Assembly: GCF_056712565.1 (NCBI RefSeq)
Contig: NZ_CM160072.1
Strand: one strand, 5' to 3'
DNA length: 64,000 nt
Shown here: positions 19,559-32,790 of the stretch, piece after piece
Position numbering within the stretch: the first letter of the stretch is position 1
Layout of the letters: the number at the start of each line of letters is the position of its first letter
Program-made: the position numbers and the translations under genes
Notes under the pieces: generated by a model
The model's database searches: none
Seen by the model: the letters and a program-made list of their open reading frames with translations, nothing else
What the model was told of the DNA's origin: nothing

Positions 19559-23242
<3,684 letters not shown>

Positions 23243-23251
23243 GTGATAACA

Positions 23252-23276
23252 CCGGGGTATTTGCCCCGGTTTTTAA
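23252..23276 (+). terminator. rho-independent terminator after metH
   Basis: Hairpin CCGGGGTATTTGCCCCGG followed by TTTTTAA directly after metH stop. Confidence 0.8.
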
Positions 23277-23295
23277 TGTCATAAATAATGGATTA

Positions 23296-23622
23296 TTGAA
23301 CATGATAAAAATTGATGAAATAGATTTTTTCGCTTTCGAAGGATGTTCAGAGTCCGAAGTTACTGAACTATTAGGAAAAAAACCAACAGGTTATAATGAT
23401 TGGATGATTAATATAAAAACAGGTGTGGAGTGGGTATTTTATGATGGTCGTTATTGGTTAGATTTTCGTAAATCCAAAGAGGGTATAAGGTGTATCTCAT
23501 GCAGTATTCTGTATCACGATAAAAGTAAAGGGCGTATCGATGTCTTATTTAGTGAAGGTATAGCTGACAGAGGTTTAAAAAATACGGGTGGAGTGTTAAT
23601 CCAAAAACGCCCGCAATTATAA
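23296..23622 (+). CDS. hypothetical protein (AT-rich accessory ORF 1, no recognised family)
   Basis: 108-aa ORF in markedly AT-rich DNA; no TM segment or signal peptide; weak RBS so start (23296 or 23302) is uncertain; not recognised by me. Confidence 0.45.
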   Translation: MNMIKIDEIDFFAFEGCSESEVTELLGKKPTGYNDWMINIKTGVEWVFYDGRYWLDFRKSKEGIRCISCSILYHDKSKGRIDVLFSEGIADRGLKNTGGVLIQKRPQL

Positions 23623-23664
23623 TAATTCCTGGTAATATTTGTTTTCGTAAAAAGGATTTACTTT

Positions 23665-24114
23665 ATGCAACGTCAATATAAAAAATACATTCTTCTTTTT
23701 TGGGGTGTCATGGATGTTATCGCGATAGCCACATATCTGTTCTACTCGCTTGGTAATGGTCGTATCCCTTTTTATTCCGATATCGTTCATTCACTTTCTT
23801 TACTTAAGGATATCGGTGTTGAAGGCGGTTTTTACGCTTATGCAGTCGCCACTGTTACGCTACAAATAGTATTATTGCTCTCTTTATTCTTTTCTGCGCA
23901 ATGTTTTTTAAGACAAAAATTATTTAGTTTCTCTTTTTTGGCGATTCAGGAGTTTATGCGTTTTGCTACCGTAAGCTGTTCAATCTCCGTAATACCGTTG
24001 TTACTTAATTATTTTTATTCACAGGATCTGGTCTTAAATATTTCGTTGTTTATCTTCTCAGAGGTCACAAAAGTGACAACGATTATCTGGTGTAAACGAC
24101 AGGGGAAAGTGTGA
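23665..24114 (+). CDS. hypothetical small integral membrane protein (predicted 4 TM helices), AT-rich accessory ORF 2
   Basis: 149-aa ORF with four hydrophobic stretches; plausible SD AAGGA about 8 nt upstream of ATG; AT-rich codon usage. Confidence 0.55.
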   Translation: MQRQYKKYILLFWGVMDVIAIATYLFYSLGNGRIPFYSDIVHSLSLLKDIGVEGGFYAYAVATVTLQIVLLLSLFFSAQCFLRQKLFSFSFLAIQEFMRFATVSCSISVIPLLLNYFYSQDLVLNISLFIFSEVTKVTTIIWCKRQGKV

Positions 24115-24284
24115 CAGAAATAGCAACAGATACAGGTGGATTTTTATATAAATGCCTTTTTAAATGCTTTCTTGTATAAATCTCTTATACTGAAAGTACA
24201 TACAAGAGAAATGCCTGGATAAAAACAACGTGATTAGAAAAATCTTAACAGGAAAATGCATAACAAAAAGGAGAACCTGATTCC

Positions 24285-25916
24285 GTGCTAACTTTGCTTC
24301 ACCTGCTTTCTGCCGTCGCCCTGCTGGTCTGGGGGACTCATATTGTTCGAACAGGCGTAATGCGCGTCTTCGGCGCGCGTCTGCGTACTGTCCTTAGCCG
24401 GAGCGTCGAAAAAAAGCCGCTCGCCTTTTGCGCGGGGATCGGCGTTACCGCACTGGTGCAGAGCAGTAATGCCACCACCATGCTGGTGACCTCGTTCGTC
24501 GCTCAGGATCTGGTTGCTCTCGCGCCTGCGCTGGTGATTGTGCTGGGTGCAGATGTCGGGACGGCGCTGATGGCGCGTATTCTCACCTTCGATTTATCCT
24601 GGCTGTCACCGTTACTTATTTTTATCGGCGTGATTTTTTTCCTCGGACGCAAACAGTCACGCGCCGGGCAACTGGGCCGCGTCGGTATTGGTCTTGGGCT
24701 GATTTTACTGGCGCTGGAGTTGATTGTGCAGGCCGTAACGCCGATCACTCAGGCAAACGGCGTTCAGGTGATCTTTGCCTCGCTGACTGGCGACATTTTG
24801 CTGGATGCGCTGATTGGTGCGATGTTCGCCATTATCAGCTACTCCAGCCTTGCCGCGGTACTGCTGACCGCGACTCTGACCGCCGCAGGCATTATCTCTT
24901 TCCCAGTGGCGCTTTGTCTGGTGATTGGTGCAAACCTCGGTTCCGGCCTGCTGGCGATGCTCAACAACAGTGCCGCCAATGCCGCAGCCCGCCGTGTCGC
25001 GCTGGGTAGCCTGCTGTTTAAGCTGGTGGGTAGCCTGATTATCCTGCCGTTTGTTCATTTGCTGGCAGAGACAATGGGGAAGTTGCCATTGCCAAAAGCG
25101 GAATTGGTGATCTATTTCCACGTCTTCTACAACCTTGTACGCTGCCTGGTCATGTTGCCATTCGTTGACCCGATGGCACGGTTTTGCAAAACGATTATTC
25201 GCGATGAACCGGAACTGGATACCCAGCTACGGCCTAAACATCTGGATGTCAGCGCGCTGGATACGCCCACGCTTGCTCTGGCGAACGCTGCCCGCGAAAC
25301 CCTGCGCATTGGCGACGCCATGGAACAGATGATGGAAGGGCTGAATAAAGTGATGCACGGCGAGCCACGGCAGGAGAAAGAGCTGCGTAAGCTGGCTGAT
25401 GACATCAACGTTCTCTATACCGCCATTAAGCTGTATCTGGCGCGGATGCCAAAAGAGGAACTGGCAGAAGAAGAGTCGCGCCGCTGGGCGGAGATCATCG
25501 AAATGTCGCTCAACCTTGAACAGGCCTCCGATATCGTCGAGCGCATGGGGAGTGAAATTGCCGACAAATCGCTGGCTGCAAGGCGAGCATTTTCGCTTGA
25601 TGGCTTGAAGGAACTGGATGCGCTCTATGAGCAATTGCTCAGTAATTTAAAACTGGCAATGTCGGTTTTCTTCTCTGGCGATGTTACCAGCGCCCGTCGT
25701 TTGCGCCGCAGCAAACATCGTTTTCGCATTCTTAATCGCCGCTATTCCCACGCCCACGTCGATCGCCTGCATCAGCAAAACGTGCAGAGTATTGAAACCA
25801 GTTCGCTACATTTAGGCTTACTGGGAGATATGCAGCGTCTGAACTCGCTGTTTTGTTCGGTGGCTTACAGTGTGCTGGAACAGCCGGATGAAGATGAAGG
25901 ACGGGACGAGTATTAA
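24285..25916 (+). CDS. yjbB: Na+/phosphate cotransporter family (PNaS) protein YjbB
   Basis: 543-aa ORF with GTG start, multiple TM helices and C-terminal PhoU-like region; K-12 synteny. Confidence 0.85.
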   Translation: MLTLLHLLSAVALLVWGTHIVRTGVMRVFGARLRTVLSRSVEKKPLAFCAGIGVTALVQSSNATTMLVTSFVAQDLVALAPALVIVLGADVGTALMARILTFDLSWLSPLLIFIGVIFFLGRKQSRAGQLGRVGIGLGLILLALELIVQAVTPITQANGVQVIFASLTGDILLDALIGAMFAIISYSSLAAVLLTATLTAAGIISFPVALCLVIGANLGSGLLAMLNNSAANAAARRVALGSLLFKLVGSLIILPFVHLLAETMGKLPLPKAELVIYFHVFYNLVRCLVMLPFVDPMARFCKTIIRDEPELDTQLRPKHLDVSALDTPTLALANAARETLRIGDAMEQMMEGLNKVMHGEPRQEKELRKLADDINVLYTAIKLYLARMPKEELAEEESRRWAEIIEMSLNLEQASDIVERMGSEIADKSLAARRAFSLDGLKELDALYEQLLSNLKLAMSVFFSGDVTSARRLRRSKHRFRILNRRYSHAHVDRLHQQNVQSIETSSLHLGLLGDMQRLNSLFCSVAYSVLEQPDEDEGRDEY

Positions 25917-27076: not shown

Positions 27077-28306
27077 TTAATCATGGGAAATTGCCTCTGC
27101 ATGGGCGAGCAGGTATTGCTCCGCCTCACCGGACCAGATCCCCTGATGACGCGCCAGAATTGCCGCCAGTGCTTGATCCTGAATCTGCGTGAGTGACGTC
27201 AGCGGCAGGTATTTCCCGGTATACACCAGCTTTTTGCCGCCGCCGACGGCAGGCAATTCAAGCGTGGTTTCGCCCGCGGCATTCAGCCCAAGAATATGTG
27301 TTACCACTTTTGCGGCCTGCACTTTTTTCTCTTCAATCAATTTGACCGCTGCGCGCATGTCGTCGGTATTGCCGCCTGATGTGCCCACGTAGTGGGTAAA
27401 TGCATAATGCACATCGTAGAAATTAATTGGCGCGCTGAAGTGCTTATCCTGCGGTCCGGCGAAGAAATTCAGACAACCATCTGTCGCCAGCAAGGAAGAG
27501 GCGAGAGTCACCAGTCCTTCATTAGGCACAAAGACGAAAATATCATCGAAGCCGTGACCGCCACTCAGTGCCATTAACGTATCAAATGCTGCATCGGCGG
27601 CATTGAGATAATGAATCAGTGTTTGCGGTTCTGATGGATAGTGCTTGCGTGCATAACTCAATTTGTCGTTGTCGGTATCGGTAATGACGAGCAGCGAAGG
27701 GTTAACGGGTCCATGTAGCGCATAATCAATCGCCAACAGTCCCATTGGTCCGGTGCCGCCGAGGATCAGCGTGCGCCCTTGCGGGCGAATCCCCATCGTG
27801 TGGTTATAACTACCTTCCTGAAGATGATAGTTGGCGTTGAACGCGCCAATCACGCAGGAAAGCGGTTCAACCAGCGAGCCTTCAAAATAGGTTTCGCCGT
27901 CGTATGCCAGCAGGCAATCTTGTTCCATGACCTCGTTGGGAATAACCACATGCGTCGCTTCGCCGCCTACCCACGGGAAGGAGTAGCCGGGGCAATCCGG
28001 GCGGTCGGGGAGTTGCAGGTTGGCCTGAATCACATAACGCTGACCCGGCTGGAATTTGTGCTGCCACTTTTTACCCACGGCCAGAATATCGCCGCAAAAT
28101 TCGTGGCCGATGATGATGGGATTGGTCGCCACATCGTCGGGTACTTTTTTATGGTTTTCACCCAGATTGGCCTCTTTCCAGGAAGAGAGGCACAGGCTGT
28201 CAGTGACCACCGTCGCGAGGATTTCATCCTCCTGCATTTCAGGAAGGTCAAAGGTTTCCAGACGCAGGTCACGTTTGCCATAAAGACGCAGAGCTGTTGT
28301 TTTCAT
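27077..28306 (-). CDS. sorE: L-sorbose-1-phosphate reductase (Zn-dependent dehydrogenase family)
   Basis: About 409-aa product (MKTTALRLYG...) of ORF 27077-28318; last gene of a sorCDFBAME-ordered cluster. Confidence 0.8.
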   Translation of the reverse strand: MKTTALRLYGKRDLRLETFDLPEMQEDEILATVVTDSLCLSSWKEANLGENHKKVPDDVATNPIIIGHEFCGDILAVGKKWQHKFQPGQRYVIQANLQLPDRPDCPGYSFPWVGGEATHVVIPNEVMEQDCLLAYDGETYFEGSLVEPLSCVIGAFNANYHLQEGSYNHTMGIRPQGRTLILGGTGPMGLLAIDYALHGPVNPSLLVITDTDNDKLSYARKHYPSEPQTLIHYLNAADAAFDTLMALSGGHGFDDIFVFVPNEGLVTLASSLLATDGCLNFFAGPQDKHFSAPINFYDVHYAFTHYVGTSGGNTDDMRAAVKLIEEKKVQAAKVVTHILGLNAAGETTLELPAVGGGKKLVYTGKYLPLTSLTQIQDQALAAILARHQGIWSGEAEQYLLAHAEAISHD

Positions 28307-28357
28307 AAACCACCTCATGTTGAGCGATGACCCCGGCAGTCGTGCCGGGGCGAAGAA

Positions 28358-29182
28358 TCAGGACAGGAAGCCCAGCGCATTACCGATAATCCCTAAACCA
28401 AACAGGGCGAAAATCAGCCATACCGGGTTAATTTTTTTGTTGAGCAGACGAACCATCAGCAGCGTCAGACCGAGCGCCAGCAAACCAGGGCAAAGTTGGT
28501 CGAGGATGTTCTGCACGGTTATGGTGACGGTGGCACCATCGGCGGCAGGCGTTTGTGAAACCACCAACGGTACGTTGATTGACGTCCATTTGGTCACCAG
28601 CACGCCCATCACAAACAGCCCGAGAATCGACGCGCCTTCGGTGAGTTTTTGCAGCAAATTACCGCCCATATCGCTGACGATATTCACCCCTTTGCGAAAG
28701 CCGAGCTGTAGGCCATACCACTTCATCGCCAGACGCACCGCGTTGAAAATAAAGAAGAACAGTAGGGGGCCGAGAATGTTGCCCGAAAGTGCCAGAGATG
28801 CGCCGAGCGCGGCGGTAATCGGGCGCAGCGTTCCCCAGACCAGTGGATCTCCAACTCCTGCCAATGGTCCCATCAGACCGACTTTGATGCCGTTAATGGT
28901 ACCGTCATCAATTTCCGCGCCGTTGGCTCGCGCCTCTTCCATGGCGGCAGTGACGCCGATGACCGGGCCACATACGGCTGGCGTGGTATTGAAGAACACC
29001 AGGTGTCGCCTGAGCGCCGCAACCTGATCCTCTTTTAATGGGTAAAGTCGTTTGATGGCGGGGATCATGTCGTAGCAAAAACCCAGCCCGTGAATACGTT
29101 CAAAGTTAAAGGATGCCTGTTGCAGGTTGGAGCGCAGAAACATGCTCACCAGATCGCTGCGTGTAATTTTTCTCTGTTCCAT
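28358..29182 (-). CDS. sorM: PTS sorbose-specific EIID component
   Basis: Mannose/sorbose-family IID protein; start at MEQRKITRSDL (alternative upstream ATG at 29212 overlaps sorA). Confidence 0.8.
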   Translation of the reverse strand: MEQRKITRSDLVSMFLRSNLQQASFNFERIHGLGFCYDMIPAIKRLYPLKEDQVAALRRHLVFFNTTPAVCGPVIGVTAAMEEARANGAEIDDGTINGIKVGLMGPLAGVGDPLVWGTLRPITAALGASLALSGNILGPLLFFFIFNAVRLAMKWYGLQLGFRKGVNIVSDMGGNLLQKLTEGASILGLFVMGVLVTKWTSINVPLVVSQTPAADGATVTITVQNILDQLCPGLLALGLTLLMVRLLNKKINPVWLIFALFGLGIIGNALGFLS

Positions 29183-29192
29183 GATGGCTCCG

Positions 29193-29990
29193 TTAATCAT
29201 CAAGTTGGTCAAGGGCGGTGATAGTGGTGGTCTGGGGATGTGGTTCAGCTTTACGCCACTGTGGATTTAACTGGATGTAGAGCAGGGCCATGATCACGCC
29301 GACGCCACCGAACGCCAGCAGACTGAGATCGAGGTAGCCACCTGCGAGGAAACCGAGGAAAAAGAAAGGCATCAAATATTTCACGCCCATCATGCGAAGC
29401 ACCATGGCGTAACCGACCACCACGATAAAACCGCCAGCAATCTGCAGTCCACGGGTCACAAATTCGGGAATGGCGCTCAGCATATTGCTCACCATATCAG
29501 CGCTGACGAACAGCGAGACAATCAGTGCCGGAATAGCAACGCGCAGTGCCTGCACGCCAAGCGCGGAGACATGCAGAATATCGAGAGTGCGAAACCGTGC
29601 TTCTTCCGCTGCTTTATCCGCCGCGTGCTGGAACACTACGGTGATGGTACGGGCAAACACCGTCAGCACCTGGCCTGCCGCAGCCACAGGCAACGCGATG
29701 GCGATTCCGGTGGCGATGCTTTGCTGACCAACGATAACCAGAATGGCGGAGATTATGCTGGCGAGTGCAGAATCCGGAGATTGCGCCGCGCCGACGTTCA
29801 TCCAGCCGAGAGCTATCAATTCCAGCGTACCACCGAGCATAATTCCGGTTTTTAAATCACCGAGAATTAAACCAATCACCGTACAGGCAATTAACGGACG
29901 ATGAGTCTGAAATTCATCCAGCACGCTGCCCATTCCGGCAATACAGGAAAAAAGAAATATAGCAATGATTTGTAGGGTACTTATTTCCAT
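29193..29990 (-). CDS. sorA: PTS sorbose-specific EIIC component
   Basis: 265-aa polytopic membrane protein of mannose/sorbose IIC type. Confidence 0.82.
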   Translation of the reverse strand: MEISTLQIIAIFLFSCIAGMGSVLDEFQTHRPLIACTVIGLILGDLKTGIMLGGTLELIALGWMNVGAAQSPDSALASIISAILVIVGQQSIATGIAIALPVAAAGQVLTVFARTITVVFQHAADKAAEEARFRTLDILHVSALGVQALRVAIPALIVSLFVSADMVSNMLSAIPEFVTRGLQIAGGFIVVVGYAMVLRMMGVKYLMPFFFLGFLAGGYLDLSLLAFGGVGVIMALLYIQLNPQWRKAEPHPQTTTITALDQLDD

Positions 29991-30055
29991 GATTTGTCAC
30001 CTTTTAAGTGTCGTCATCCCTGCCTGTTAAAGCATATGTACACAGGCGCTATTAT

Positions 30056-30550
30056 TTAATTTGCGATTAACTGTTCGTTTATTTTGTCGATAATATTGAT
30101 TGAGGGATCTGACGCTACGACGCGTAAATCCAGTATGACGCCAAGATTATTTAACTCATGAAATGCGTTAATATCATCGTCATCTAATGAAACTGCTTTG
30201 GTTAACTGTTTCTTACCAGGACGCCAGGCCATACCGCCAATATTCAGGGTACCTATTTTTACCCCCTGGCGAACCATTGCTAAGGCATCCTGTGGGCGAG
30301 TGAAAAGATAAAAAACGGTTTCGTCCTGATATTGCGGGTTGTGATAAACCGCGACGGCTTTTTCAATATTGACCACGTTAACCTTCATTCCCGGTGGCGC
30401 AGCCTGACGCAATAATGTCCGGCGAACTTCATCGTTATAAACTTCGTCATTGCAGATAATAATGCGTTGGGCGTTAGCCACTTTAGACCAGACGGTAGTG
30501 ACCTGGCCGTGGATCAGGCGGTCATCAATGCGGGCGAGCGTAATGTTCAT
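30056..30550 (-). CDS. sorB: PTS sorbose-specific EIIB component
   Basis: 164-aa ORF with mannose-family IIB N-terminus MNITLARIDDRLIHGQV (phospho-His). Confidence 0.85.
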   Translation of the reverse strand: MNITLARIDDRLIHGQVTTVWSKVANAQRIIICNDEVYNDEVRRTLLRQAAPPGMKVNVVNIEKAVAVYHNPQYQDETVFYLFTRPQDALAMVRQGVKIGTLNIGGMAWRPGKKQLTKAVSLDDDDINAFHELNNLGVILDLRVVASDPSINIIDKINEQLIAN

Positions 30551-30957
30551 CAGAAATCCTCCTCTGCTGTTGCTACCTGTCTCCAGACGACGCAGGTTTG
30601 CTTTGCGATTTGCGTCAGGTGTTCACACAGTTCATCAACATTCATGCTGTCCTGGTTATCAACCAGTTCGAGCGCCAGCGGCAGAGAAAGGCCGCTGATT
30701 ACCCGCAGACGAGGATTGCGCATCGCAAGCATCGCTGCCGCATTCCACGGGCTGCCGCACTGTAAATCCACGGCGATTAGCCACTCGTCATGATTGTGAA
30801 TGCTCACTAACTTCTCCAGCTTTGCCACAATGTCTCCGGCGTTCTCGCCGGGCACAAATTCAACTGCCTCGACCCTGGCATCGCCGTACACCATCTGAAC
30901 CGATTCCAGCATGGCGCAGGCTAATTTGCCGTGGGCGCAAAAAATGGCATTGACCAT
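30550..30957 (-). CDS. sorF: PTS sorbose-specific EIIA component
   Basis: 135-aa ORF with mannose-family IIA N-terminus (CAHGKLA, phospho-His); stop/start overlap with sorB. Confidence 0.82.
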   Translation of the reverse strand: MVNAIFCAHGKLACAMLESVQMVYGDARVEAVEFVPGENAGDIVAKLEKLVSIHNHDEWLIAVDLQCGSPWNAAAMLAMRNPRLRVISGLSLPLALELVDNQDSMNVDELCEHLTQIAKQTCVVWRQVATAEEDF

Positions 30958-30966
30958 AAAGCCTCC

Positions 30967-31773
30967 TTAGCCGCGCGTTTTGCCGCCTGCAATGTTAGTG
31001 GTTACTCCGGTGATATAGCTGGCGCGTTCAGACAGCAGATAACAAACAAAATCAGCCACTTCTGCTAATCTTCCGGCGCGCCCAATAGGAATGGCGTTTT
31101 TGGTATAGCCTTCACGCAGCTGCTCGACGGTGATATTGCGCGTCCACGCCAGCGCTTCTTCATATTCCGGCGTGCGCAGTCCTGTTTTTTCCAGAATCCC
31201 CGGCGCGATACCGACCACACGGATACCGTGCTTGCCCAGCTCTTTCGACCAGGAGCGCGTGAAGCTATTGAGCGCGGCTTTGGTCGCGGCGTAACAGCTT
31301 TGGCCTTCTGAGCCTTCCAGCCCACTTTCTGAGGAAACATTCACAATCACGCCATCATGTTGTTTGACCATCTGTCGCGCCACCGCCTGCGACATCAGAA
31401 AAACGCCTTTCTGGTTGATATTGACCATTTTTTCGAATGCAGCTTCGTTGAGTTCATACTGCCCGGCAGGCGCTTTCTCATCGACCAGCAGACGCGGGAA
31501 ATTGACCCCGGCGTTGTTAACCAGACCGTCGATGCGACCAAAACGCTGGATAATTTCTGCTACCGTATGATTTATCTCTTTGGCGCTGGAAATATCGGTC
31601 GGCCAGAACTGATAACCTTTATGGCTTTCATATTGACCATCGCCACCGTGAATATCGACCATCTGTACATTCGCGCCTTGTGCTAATAATTCCTCTACAA
31701 TCGCCAGACCAATACCGGATGCGCCACCGGTGACAATAATGATTTTATCCTGCAAATTTAACCACGTTTGCAT
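30967..31773 (-). CDS. sorD: sorbitol(glucitol)-6-phosphate 2-dehydrogenase (SDR family)
   Basis: 268-aa short-chain dehydrogenase (TGGASGIG Rossmann motif; YAATKAA catalytic region). Confidence 0.82.
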   Translation of the reverse strand: MQTWLNLQDKIIIVTGGASGIGLAIVEELLAQGANVQMVDIHGGDGQYESHKGYQFWPTDISSAKEINHTVAEIIQRFGRIDGLVNNAGVNFPRLLVDEKAPAGQYELNEAAFEKMVNINQKGVFLMSQAVARQMVKQHDGVIVNVSSESGLEGSEGQSCYAATKAALNSFTRSWSKELGKHGIRVVGIAPGILEKTGLRTPEYEEALAWTRNITVEQLREGYTKNAIPIGRAGRLAEVADFVCYLLSERASYITGVTTNIAGGKTRG

Positions 31774-31842
31774 AACAGACTCCTGATTTTAGATAGTAGG
31801 GACCCGCCGTAATTTTTATTACGGTAAACATCGGGAAGATTT

Positions 31843-32790
31843 TTATTTCAGTAATAGTTCAGCTGTGCTGCTATTCGTTACCAGACAATTAATATATTTT
31901 CCACGCAGTGCACCAACAATTCCGCTGTATTTTTCTTCGCTCATGGCAATGCCAATGGAATACCGTGCCTGCTTTAATTTATTCATTTCGATAGAGAGTG
32001 TTTTTTCGCTCATATTCGTTTCAACCATTGCGCCGTGAATATCAAAAAAGCGCGAGCAAATATCGCCAGCAACCTGGCGGGCATTCAGGTCGTCACTCTC
32101 TTCACCACCATAAAACGCATGCCAGTTAGCGCCGTCGCGAATGGCCGGTGAGCCAATTCCCACCAGGGCGACATCCAGATTATCCCAGTAGGCAGAGATG
32201 GTTTTAAAGTGCTGAGACTGCATGATCCCATTACGAATTAATGGGTTATCCAGCAGCGCCGGAAAATCCGCGAGATGCGATTCCCCTTTCAGCTTCGCTG
32301 CCGCGCTGTAGGTTAATGTGTTTACGTGATAGCGGCTTTCGAGTTTACCGGACGGGCCGCCAATAATCGGCACGCAAATTAACTGCCGCGATTGCCCCGC
32401 CTGCGGCAAGTTTTCAACCAGTGCGCTCACCGCGCGGCCCCAGGAAAAACCGACAATATCGCCAGGTTCCAGCAAGCGATCCAGCAGTTGCGCGCCGTGT
32501 AACCCCATCATCGCCAGTTGAATATCTTCATCCTCATCATTTCCTGACACCACCACAACGTCTTTCAGGCCAAACTTTTGCTTCACTTGCTGCTCCAGCC
32601 AGAGATTTTCGTTGTAGTCATAGTTGATGGCGATGGTGACAATTCCCTGATCGCGGCCTCGTTTAAGCAAGCGGCTGATGGTAGTGCGATAAATACCCAG
32701 TTCGCGCGCAATTTGCGCCTGCGTCATATCCTGTTCGTAATAGAGTTGGGCAATCTTCACAATCAAACGGATATCGTCACTGTTTTCCAT
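31843..32790 (-). CDS. sorC: sorbose operon transcriptional regulator, SorC family
   Basis: 315-aa product from MENSDDIRLIVKIAQLYYEQDMTQAQIARELG (HTH) with AGGAGG 5 nt upstream; C-terminal sugar-phosphate binding domain. Confidence 0.8.
   Translation of the reverse strand: MENSDDIRLIVKIAQLYYEQDMTQAQIARELGIYRTTISRLLKRGRDQGIVTIAINYDYNENLWLEQQVKQKFGLKDVVVVSGNDEDEDIQLAMMGLHGAQLLDRLLEPGDIVGFSWGRAVSALVENLPQAGQSRQLICVPIIGGPSGKLESRYHVNTLTYSAAAKLKGESHLADFPALLDNPLIRNGIMQSQHFKTISAYWDNLDVALVGIGSPAIRDGANWHAFYGGEESDDLNARQVAGDICSRFFDIHGAMVETNMSEKTLSIEMNKLKQARYSIGIAMSEEKYSGIVGALRGKYINCLVTNSSTAELLLK

Follow-up and report, generated by a model that had tools for sequence, protein, structure and literature searches.

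What does a small membrane protein, encoded in a two-gene AT-rich islet between metH and yjbB, do for the Escherichia coli strains that carry it? The gene, ORF2, is located at 23665..24114 on the + strand of a 64,000-nucleotide stretch of DNA (the window; NCBI RefSeq assembly GCF_056712565.1, contig NZ_CM160072.1). It starts with an ATG, and its 149-amino-acid product, annotated in RefSeq as a 'hypothetical protein' (WP_001189566.1), is a predicted inner-membrane protein with four transmembrane (TM) helices. An earlier interpretation made without database searches, referred to here as the sequence-only reading, had likened it to small polytopic immunity proteins and named colicins, contact-dependent inhibition (CDI) toxins, and phage exclusion as the possible associated systems. 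Comparison of ORF2 with its homologs suggests instead that it is an orphan immunity gene belonging to an uncharacterized type VI secretion system (T6SS) effector-immunity family, in which the cognate toxin would be the C-terminal domain of DUF8093 proteins (DUF8093-CT); a probability of roughly 0.6 was assigned to this reading. It is proposed as an immunity gene because its homologs lie directly 3' of a domain that can also be fused to VgrG, and as an orphan because no DUF8093-CT domain was present in any frame of the window, while copies from elsewhere in the family adjoin one.

ORF2 is a conserved gene encoding a four-helix membrane protein

Selection on ORF2 was evaluated by comparison with the Escherichia whittamii-type allele (found in E. 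whittamii and in matching metagenome contigs), which encodes a protein with 85% amino acid identity. The ratio of nonsynonymous to synonymous divergence (dN/dS) was 0.13 at a dS of 0.62. The metH and yjbB segments had dS values of 0.43 and 0.30 in the same comparison, and thus the divergence of ORF2 is of the same order as that of its neighbors. Four positions were invariant across the ORF2 family (W13, D17, R99, and E133), and all four were kept in the E. coli protein. The low dN/dS and the conservation of these residues confirmed, at the level of sequence comparison, that ORF2 is a real gene rather than a chance open reading frame. The Shine-Dalgarno (SD) sequence previously proposed for it, AAGGA, was found at 23652..23656 on the + strand, 8 nucleotides before the ATG. 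The E. whittamii-type locus retained this AAGGA and approximately 25 nucleotides before the ATG, with different DNA further upstream. Frameshifted alleles were present in some E. coli assemblies, ending at 87-92 amino acids, after TM2 (proteins P0011, P0015, P0017, and P0020).

The four hydrophobic segments picked out by the sequence-only reading coincided with four Kyte-Doolittle peaks, and they matched the helices of an AlphaFold2 model (predicted local distance difference test score, pLDDT, 88.9; predicted template modeling score, pTM, 0.78). The modeled helices spanned residues 2-30, 55-82, 89-102 together with 109-117 (a broken third helix), and 122-147, and an extra helix was modeled at 37-50 in loop 1. 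Positive charges were located at the N-terminus (R3, K6, K7), in loop 2 (R83, K85), and at the C-terminus (K144, R145, K148), which by the positive-inside rule suggests that both termini are in the cytoplasm (N-in/C-in).

The ORF2 family

Relatives of ORF2 were identified with an exhaustive phmmer search of 1.84 billion representative proteins, using a cut-off of E <= 0.001. There were 60 matches, of which approximately 40 were near full length (138-153 amino acids) with roughly 24-41% identity to ORF2, and the relatives were spread over the Gammaproteobacteria and Burkholderia. A word-indexed search with ORF2 did not reach beyond Escherichia sequences and frameshifted fragments. In addition to the four invariant positions, six were near-invariant (G14, P35, D39, Q95, S106, and K136). 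The family motifs were F-W-G-x-M-D in TM1 and G-R-I-P-x-x-x-D in the periplasmic loop, and there were polar residues within TM3 and TM4.

No Pfam family matched ORF2 or any of 41 family members. Searches with ORF2 gave no match in NCBIfam, zero matches in PADLOC at E <= 1, and no useful match in PHROGs; its profile matched no PDB chain, and no PDB sequence or fold was informative. The only matches in a Foldseek search of the AlphaFold database (AFDB) were members of the family, from Yersinia, Pseudomonas, Pasteurella, Stenotrophomonas, and others. In AFDB, ORF2 relatives bore names ('Arginine:ornithine antiporter', 'DoxX', 'DUF2569') that were mutually inconsistent and uninformative, and these were not used. 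The ORF2 family is an unnamed and uncharacterized family of four-helix inner-membrane proteins.

ORF2 homologs are linked to a VgrG-associated domain

A genome scan with a 9-sequence alignment identified 28 loci with an ORF2 homolog, in Escherichia, Kosakonia, Phytobacter, Superficieibacter, Citrobacter, Enterobacter, Pseudocitrobacter, and Franconibacter. Approximately 50 loci, partially annotated, were examined overall. In most genera the homolog was in the metH-yjbB slot or at least directly 5' of yjbB. The flanking proteins were 90-95% identical across the slot loci, compared with only 32-40% for the ORF2 homologs.

In 13 Enterobacteriaceae loci the ORF2 homolog was preceded by a gene for a protein of approximately 267 amino acids, the stop codon of which overlapped the start of the ORF2 homolog by a few bases. 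The precomputed Pfam label of this upstream protein was DUF8093; a Pfam scan of the Kosakonia protein gave no DUF8093 call. Its conserved C-terminal half, approximately 120 amino acids, is the domain referred to here as DUF8093-CT, and the ORF2-type gene was directly 3' of it, often with an overlap of a few bases. The domain was found in three forms: within the 267-amino-acid stand-alone protein, as a C-terminal fusion to VgrG, and in T6SS clusters beside VgrG or PAAR-Rhs. In the fusion at locus L041, a hidden Markov model (HMM) of 13 DUF8093 proteins matched residues 879-992 of a 999-amino-acid VgrG (E 2.7e-41), and the VgrG gene was followed by an ORF2 homolog with a 14-nucleotide overlap. 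When plasmids were searched with tblastn, a Rahnella aquatilis megaplasmid was found to encode the CT domain immediately after VgrG, and then an ORF2 homolog (E 4e-41); the Rahnella core T6SS cluster contained Hcp, TssH, VgrG, PAAR, and TssM. Pairs of DUF8093 and ORF2-type genes were also encoded away from metH and yjbB, within T6SS neighborhoods that included VgrG (TIGR03361, 3e-179), PAAR-Rhs, DUF2169-like and pentapeptide proteins, PoNi, and TssF/TssG. Being fused to VgrG or encoded with VgrG and PAAR, the partner of the ORF2 family is predicted to be a T6SS substrate. This VgrG context points to type VI secretion as the associated system, rather than to colicins, CDI, or phage exclusion. 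The proposal of a small polytopic protein of the immunity type thus gained from the position of the homologs 3' of a VgrG-associated domain, while the specific systems named with it gained no support.

Two further arrangements were observed among these loci. In an uncultured Enterobacteriaceae (L026, 534-4765 and 6480-11140), the DUF8093/ORF2-type pair was embedded between two pentapeptide-repeat proteins of 849 and 356 amino acids, the larger of which looked DUF2169-like at its N-terminus, and a PAAR-Rhs protein of 1401 amino acids with an N-terminal 'AARIDDDIGH' motif, preceded by a 145-amino-acid gene. In R. aquatilis plasmid pMEM40-1 (L049, 4463-7345), the VgrG frame ran into DUF8093-CT across a single in-frame stop. 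The same VgrG-stop-CT arrangement was seen in four Rahnella plasmids and could be a pseudogenized fusion, readthrough, or a sequencing issue.

An ORF2 homolog accompanied the CT domain at every locus examined

Searches started from the CT domain found an ORF2 homolog no more than 400 bp downstream in six of six loci, in Pseudomonas mosselii, P. japonica, Burkholderia cepacia, Serratia ureilytica, R. aquatilis, and Enterobacter cloacae. The homolog in P. japonica had been missed by the gene finder. Among all loci with a DUF8093-CT match and available downstream DNA, an ORF2 homolog was directly 3' in 22 of 22. No CT domain was observed that lacked an ORF2 homolog, and ORF2 homologs were often seen without the CT domain: in Escherichia, Phytobacter, Superficieibacter, Citrobacter amalonaticus, and the Citrobacter and Enterobacter T6SS loci. 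An asymmetry of this kind is what a toxin and its immunity gene would be expected to show. Successive stages of decay were represented among the loci, from intact pairs through a split DUF8093 gene (L042) and an 81-amino-acid C-terminal remnant (L015) to no CT domain at all. For 14 pairs, the mean identity was 58% for the CT domains versus 33% for the ORF2 homologs, and the distances of the two were correlated (Spearman 0.75).

DUF8093-CT is a hydrophilic alpha/beta domain with no predicted TM segment, and no toxin-like fold was seen in it. There were no matches to DUF8093 in PADLOC (three proteins) or in NCBIfam, and profile matches in the PDB were at chance level. A literature search found no paper on DUF8093.

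In polymorphic effectors, the N-terminal domain is usually shared and the C-terminal domains are exchangeable. Unlike its C-terminal half, the N-terminal half of DUF8093 was shared with a 488-amino-acid lipase-like protein with a GHSLGG motif (hhalign E 1.9e-5, probability 78%). In the Citrobacter and Enterobacter T6SS loci (L029, L030, L032, L033, and L037; for example L037, 3754-5220 and 5217-5978), the gene order was the 488-amino-acid protein, a 253-amino-acid ankyrin-repeat lipoprotein, the ORF2 homolog, and VgrG. The lipase-like protein and the ankyrin-repeat lipoprotein are likely a separate effector-immunity pair, and the arrangement looks like one in which the C-terminal toxin was displaced and the older immunity gene was left behind. 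In the Serratia locus, Imm-NTF2 immunity genes followed the ORF2 homolog.

In Burkholderia (L047, 588-878) and in Serratia (L050, 5107-5490), a small open reading frame encoding 96 or 127 amino acids separated the CT protein from the ORF2 homolog. The two products were 47% identical and repeat a 'SYEVEDAxGxxFxGTLD' segment, which is found ahead of the CT domain as well. They may be remnants of a displaced VgrG C-terminal module.

Proposed role of ORF2 and alternative explanations

In the proposed model, the toxin domain in other Enterobacteriaceae, in Yersiniaceae (Serratia, Rahnella), in Pseudomonas, and in Burkholderia would be the C-terminal half of a 267-amino-acid protein of the cargo type or an extension of VgrG, and the ORF2-type gene that follows it, usually with an overlap of a few bases, would encode immunity. 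In the islet-bearing E. coli strains the toxin gene would be absent, and the metH-yjbB slot would hold the membrane protein alone, equipped with an SD of its own. From the inner membrane, in an N-in/C-in orientation, ORF2 would neutralize DUF8093-CT arriving from competitors, and the likeliest contact surface would comprise the membrane core and the conserved loop on the periplasmic side. The wider proposal, with slightly less than an even chance of being correct in full, is that the CT domain and the ORF2-type protein constitute an undescribed T6SS effector-immunity family, that the toxin has a fold without a solved relative and acts at or through the inner membrane, and that the orphan gene may give islet-bearing E. 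coli standing protection against T6SS attack by other Enterobacteriaceae of the gut or the environment.

Several observations weigh against the proposal that ORF2 is an orphan immunity gene. Toxicity of DUF8093-CT and protection by the ORF2 family are both predictions from gene context. Most of the Enterobacteriaceae loci were retrieved by way of ORF2, and only the six loci found from the CT domain provide an unbiased test of the linkage. No T6SS gene or toxin was found within at least 25 kb of ORF2 in the window, so that the role suggested for the E. coli copy is carried over from relatives with an identity to it of only 32-40%. The truncated alleles of 87 amino acids indicate that selection on ORF2 is not uniform. 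In addition, the charged residues within the membrane (D17, R99, E133, and K136) could mean that the protein has an activity beyond passive binding.

An alternative is that the ORF2 family is the functional membrane partner of DUF8093 rather than its antidote, such as an anchor, an activator, a helper in export or loading, or one subunit of a two-protein membrane activity, with the E. coli copy a leftover that acts alone or is idle. The tight coupling of the DUF8093 and ORF2-type genes, which often overlap, would fit this explanation, as would the polar set D17, Q95, R99, E133, and K136 with the broken third helix, features often seen in transporters and enzymes, and the absence of a toxin-like fold from the CT domain. 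However, a helper should be lost with its partner, whereas in several genera ORF2 homologs persist on their own and are under purifying selection. A domain carried at the very C-terminus of VgrG would also be exported, away from an inner-membrane protein of the producing cell, and the observation that ORF2 homologs are often alone while the CT domain never is fits a toxin and its immunity protein. A role as functional partner is accordingly considered unlikely. Somewhat less probable still is that ORF2 in E. coli is a decaying or functionless remnant carried along in an AT-rich islet. Approximately 79% of the complete E. coli genomes lack it, K-12 among them, some strains have the 87-amino-acid alleles or an IS1 insertion, and no promoter stood out beyond shuffled expectation. 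Against decay are the dN/dS of 0.13 over a dS of 0.62, the intact frame with every family-invariant residue kept, the conservation of the SD even where the DNA upstream of it was replaced, and the intact state of both islet genes in all 50 records listed of 1131 full-length matches.

The specific alternatives that follow from the sequence-only reading are immunity to a pore-forming colicin or to a CDI ionophore toxin, and phage exclusion. The size and 4-TM topology of ORF2 do resemble those classes, but the profile and structure searches described above gave no Pfam, NCBIfam, PADLOC, PHROG, or PDB match, and the recurrent neighbors of the family were VgrG, PAAR-Rhs, and DUF8093. Neither ORF2 nor the 41 family members matched a colicin immunity family, and no colicin gene was recognized in the approximately 50 partially annotated loci. 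No gene like cdiA or cdiB was recognized among the neighbors examined, not all of which were profile-scanned, and no prophage gene was recognized in the examined loci. PADLOC returned zero matches at E <= 1 for ORF1 (the other gene of the islet) and for three DUF8093 proteins as well as for ORF2. All three systems are thus very improbable. An accessory subunit or regulator of YjbB is suggested by more than 20 loci, from approximately eight enterobacterial genera, in which the ORF2 homolog lies directly 5' of yjbB and shares its strand, even where metH is not upstream. Yet yjbB was not a neighbor in Pseudomonas, Burkholderia, Serratia, Rahnella, or the Citrobacter and Enterobacter T6SS loci, and in most E. 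coli yjbB is present but ORF2 is not. The 90-95% conservation of YjbB compared with 32-40% for the ORF2 homologs is also unlike that of co-evolving subunits, and a function with YjbB would be surprising.

Comparison with known immunity systems

ORF2 is best read as an example of a kind of gene that is already known, an orphan immunity gene, here from an uncharacterized family of polymorphic T6SS effectors and their immunity proteins. The nearest published parallels were two membrane immunity proteins, which were compared with it by topology and gene order alone. PmiA, which provides immunity to ColM-type bacteriocins of Pseudomonas, has approximately 137 amino acids and four predicted TM helices, and its gene is directly 3' of the toxin gene on the same strand and is rarely annotated (PMC5277000). 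PmiA proteins have 36-40% identity compared with approximately 69% for the toxin domain, orphan copies adjoin toxin remnants, and diverged PmiA proteins are reported to cross-protect (PMC5277000). The ORF2 family shares the size, the helix count, the asymmetry in identity (33% versus 58%), and the series of orphans and remnants. It differs in being tied to VgrG and the T6SS, whereas PmiA is tied to a receptor-binding bacteriocin, and the loop motif D[T/S]xGxP of PmiA is absent from ORF2, which has G-R-I-P-x-x-x-D.

Sip4, which provides immunity to the T6SS pore-former Ssp4 of Serratia marcescens, is an inner-membrane protein with four TM helices in an N-in/C-in orientation (bioRxiv 10.1101/2024.11.27.625605), the same topology as predicted for ORF2. 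The Ssp4-Sip4 pair is inserted in the ilv housekeeping cluster, far from T6SS genes, and its homologs are sometimes beside Hcp or VgrG (bioRxiv 10.1101/2024.11.27.625605). The effectors differ: Ssp4 is alpha-helical with predicted TM helices (bioRxiv 10.1101/2024.11.27.625605), whereas DUF8093-CT is hydrophilic and alpha/beta, with none predicted. Like the orphan immunity genes of T6SS, of Rhs and CDI arrays, and of S-pyocins, ORF2 is kept without a toxin in a variable islet, truncated-toxin intermediates are present in ORF2-related genomes, and the Serratia homolog is beside Imm-NTF2. Unlike them, it occurs as one solitary copy at a conserved chromosomal position, with no array, and its toxin family is uncharacterized.

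The metH-yjbB islet and its second gene

The window was co-linear with the chromosome of E. coli UTI89, with exactly coinciding annotation coordinates. The islet is flanked on the left by metH, which stops at 23242, and on the right by yjbB, which starts at 24285 and encodes a Na/Pi-cotransporter-family protein. In K-12 there is only a 219-bp spacer between these genes, and homology to it restarts in the window near 24170, so that the islet extends over 23243..24170 (approximately 0.9 kb). Its GC content was 32-38%, compared with approximately 55% in the flanks. When 5426 complete E. coli genomes were compared, 1132 carried the islet, chromosomal in every case and absent from K-12, and 1020 of the 1132 carriers had an identity of at least 99%. 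Carriers included the extraintestinal pathogens UTI89, S88, and APEC O1, as well as IHE3034, NU14, and the type strain. Both genes were annotated as intact in all 50 records listed from the 1131 full-length matches, and in all records listed both were labeled 'hypothetical protein'. A blastn search of the 5426 genomes with an Enterobacter DUF8093 allele gave no match, a weak negative as the search was at the DNA level.

A terminator-like GC-rich hairpin with a T-run was found just 3' of metH (23251..23270, + strand), separating metH from the islet genes. There were no repeats in the flanks and no insertion sequence (IS) element in the islet; an Rfam scan gave no match, and a promoter search gave no candidate above shuffled-sequence expectation. 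In one complete genome (NZ_CP187211.1), an IS1 element was inserted inside the islet.

The other islet gene, ORF1 (23302..23622, + strand, with 23302 the start assigned by PGAP), encodes a soluble protein of 106 amino acids (WP_000590025.1). The gap of 42 bp between its stop at 23622 and ORF2 and its weak ribosome-binding site were as the sequence-only reading described them. The possibly operonic pair of ORF1 and ORF2 mentioned there was not supported as a functional one. Homologs of ORF1 were found only in Escherichia (E. coli and E. fergusonii), and its dN/dS was 0.30 over a small divergence. In the E. whittamii-type loci, approximately 290 bp of unrelated DNA took the place of ORF1 while ORF2 and its SD were kept, which indicates that ORF1 is not an obligate partner. 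No homolog of ORF1 was found in PADLOC, NCBIfam, PHROGs, Pfam, the PDB, or the other loci of the ORF2 family. ORF1 was considered as a possible remnant of DUF8093 and rejected (HMM E 1.8; no signal of the C-terminal or N-terminal half in any frame of the window). By its distribution and these comparisons, ORF1 shares the islet but is no conserved partner of the ORF2 family and is unrelated to DUF8093.

Two observations concern the DNA to the right of the islet. An Escherichia-like contig with ORF1 and ORF2 at 89-91% identity (L007, 8300-8893) had a DUF2058 gene (+ strand) 3' of yjbB in place of pepE, and thus the right flank of the metH-yjbB region is variable too. In the window, an L-sorbose utilization cluster was located between pepE and rluF (27077-32790, - strand), consisting, according to the UTI89 annotation, of sorE, mannose/sorbose-family phosphotransferase system (PTS) IIA-IID, a short-chain dehydrogenase/reductase (SDR) family oxidoreductase, and a regulator.

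Implications

Toxicity-rescue assays and competition in co-culture would be an inexpensive test of the proposal that ORF2 is an orphan T6SS immunity gene. If the proposal is correct, it would provide the first functional handle on two 'hypothetical' genes present in approximately one-fifth of sequenced E. coli, including major extraintestinal pathogenic E. coli (ExPEC) lineages, as well as on the Pfam family DUF8093 and on an unnamed 4-TM family found across the Enterobacterales, Pseudomonas, and Burkholderia. It would also add a new toxin fold to the T6SS arsenal, and the islet would be another case in which genes for immunity alone shape survival in contact-dependent warfare in the gut.
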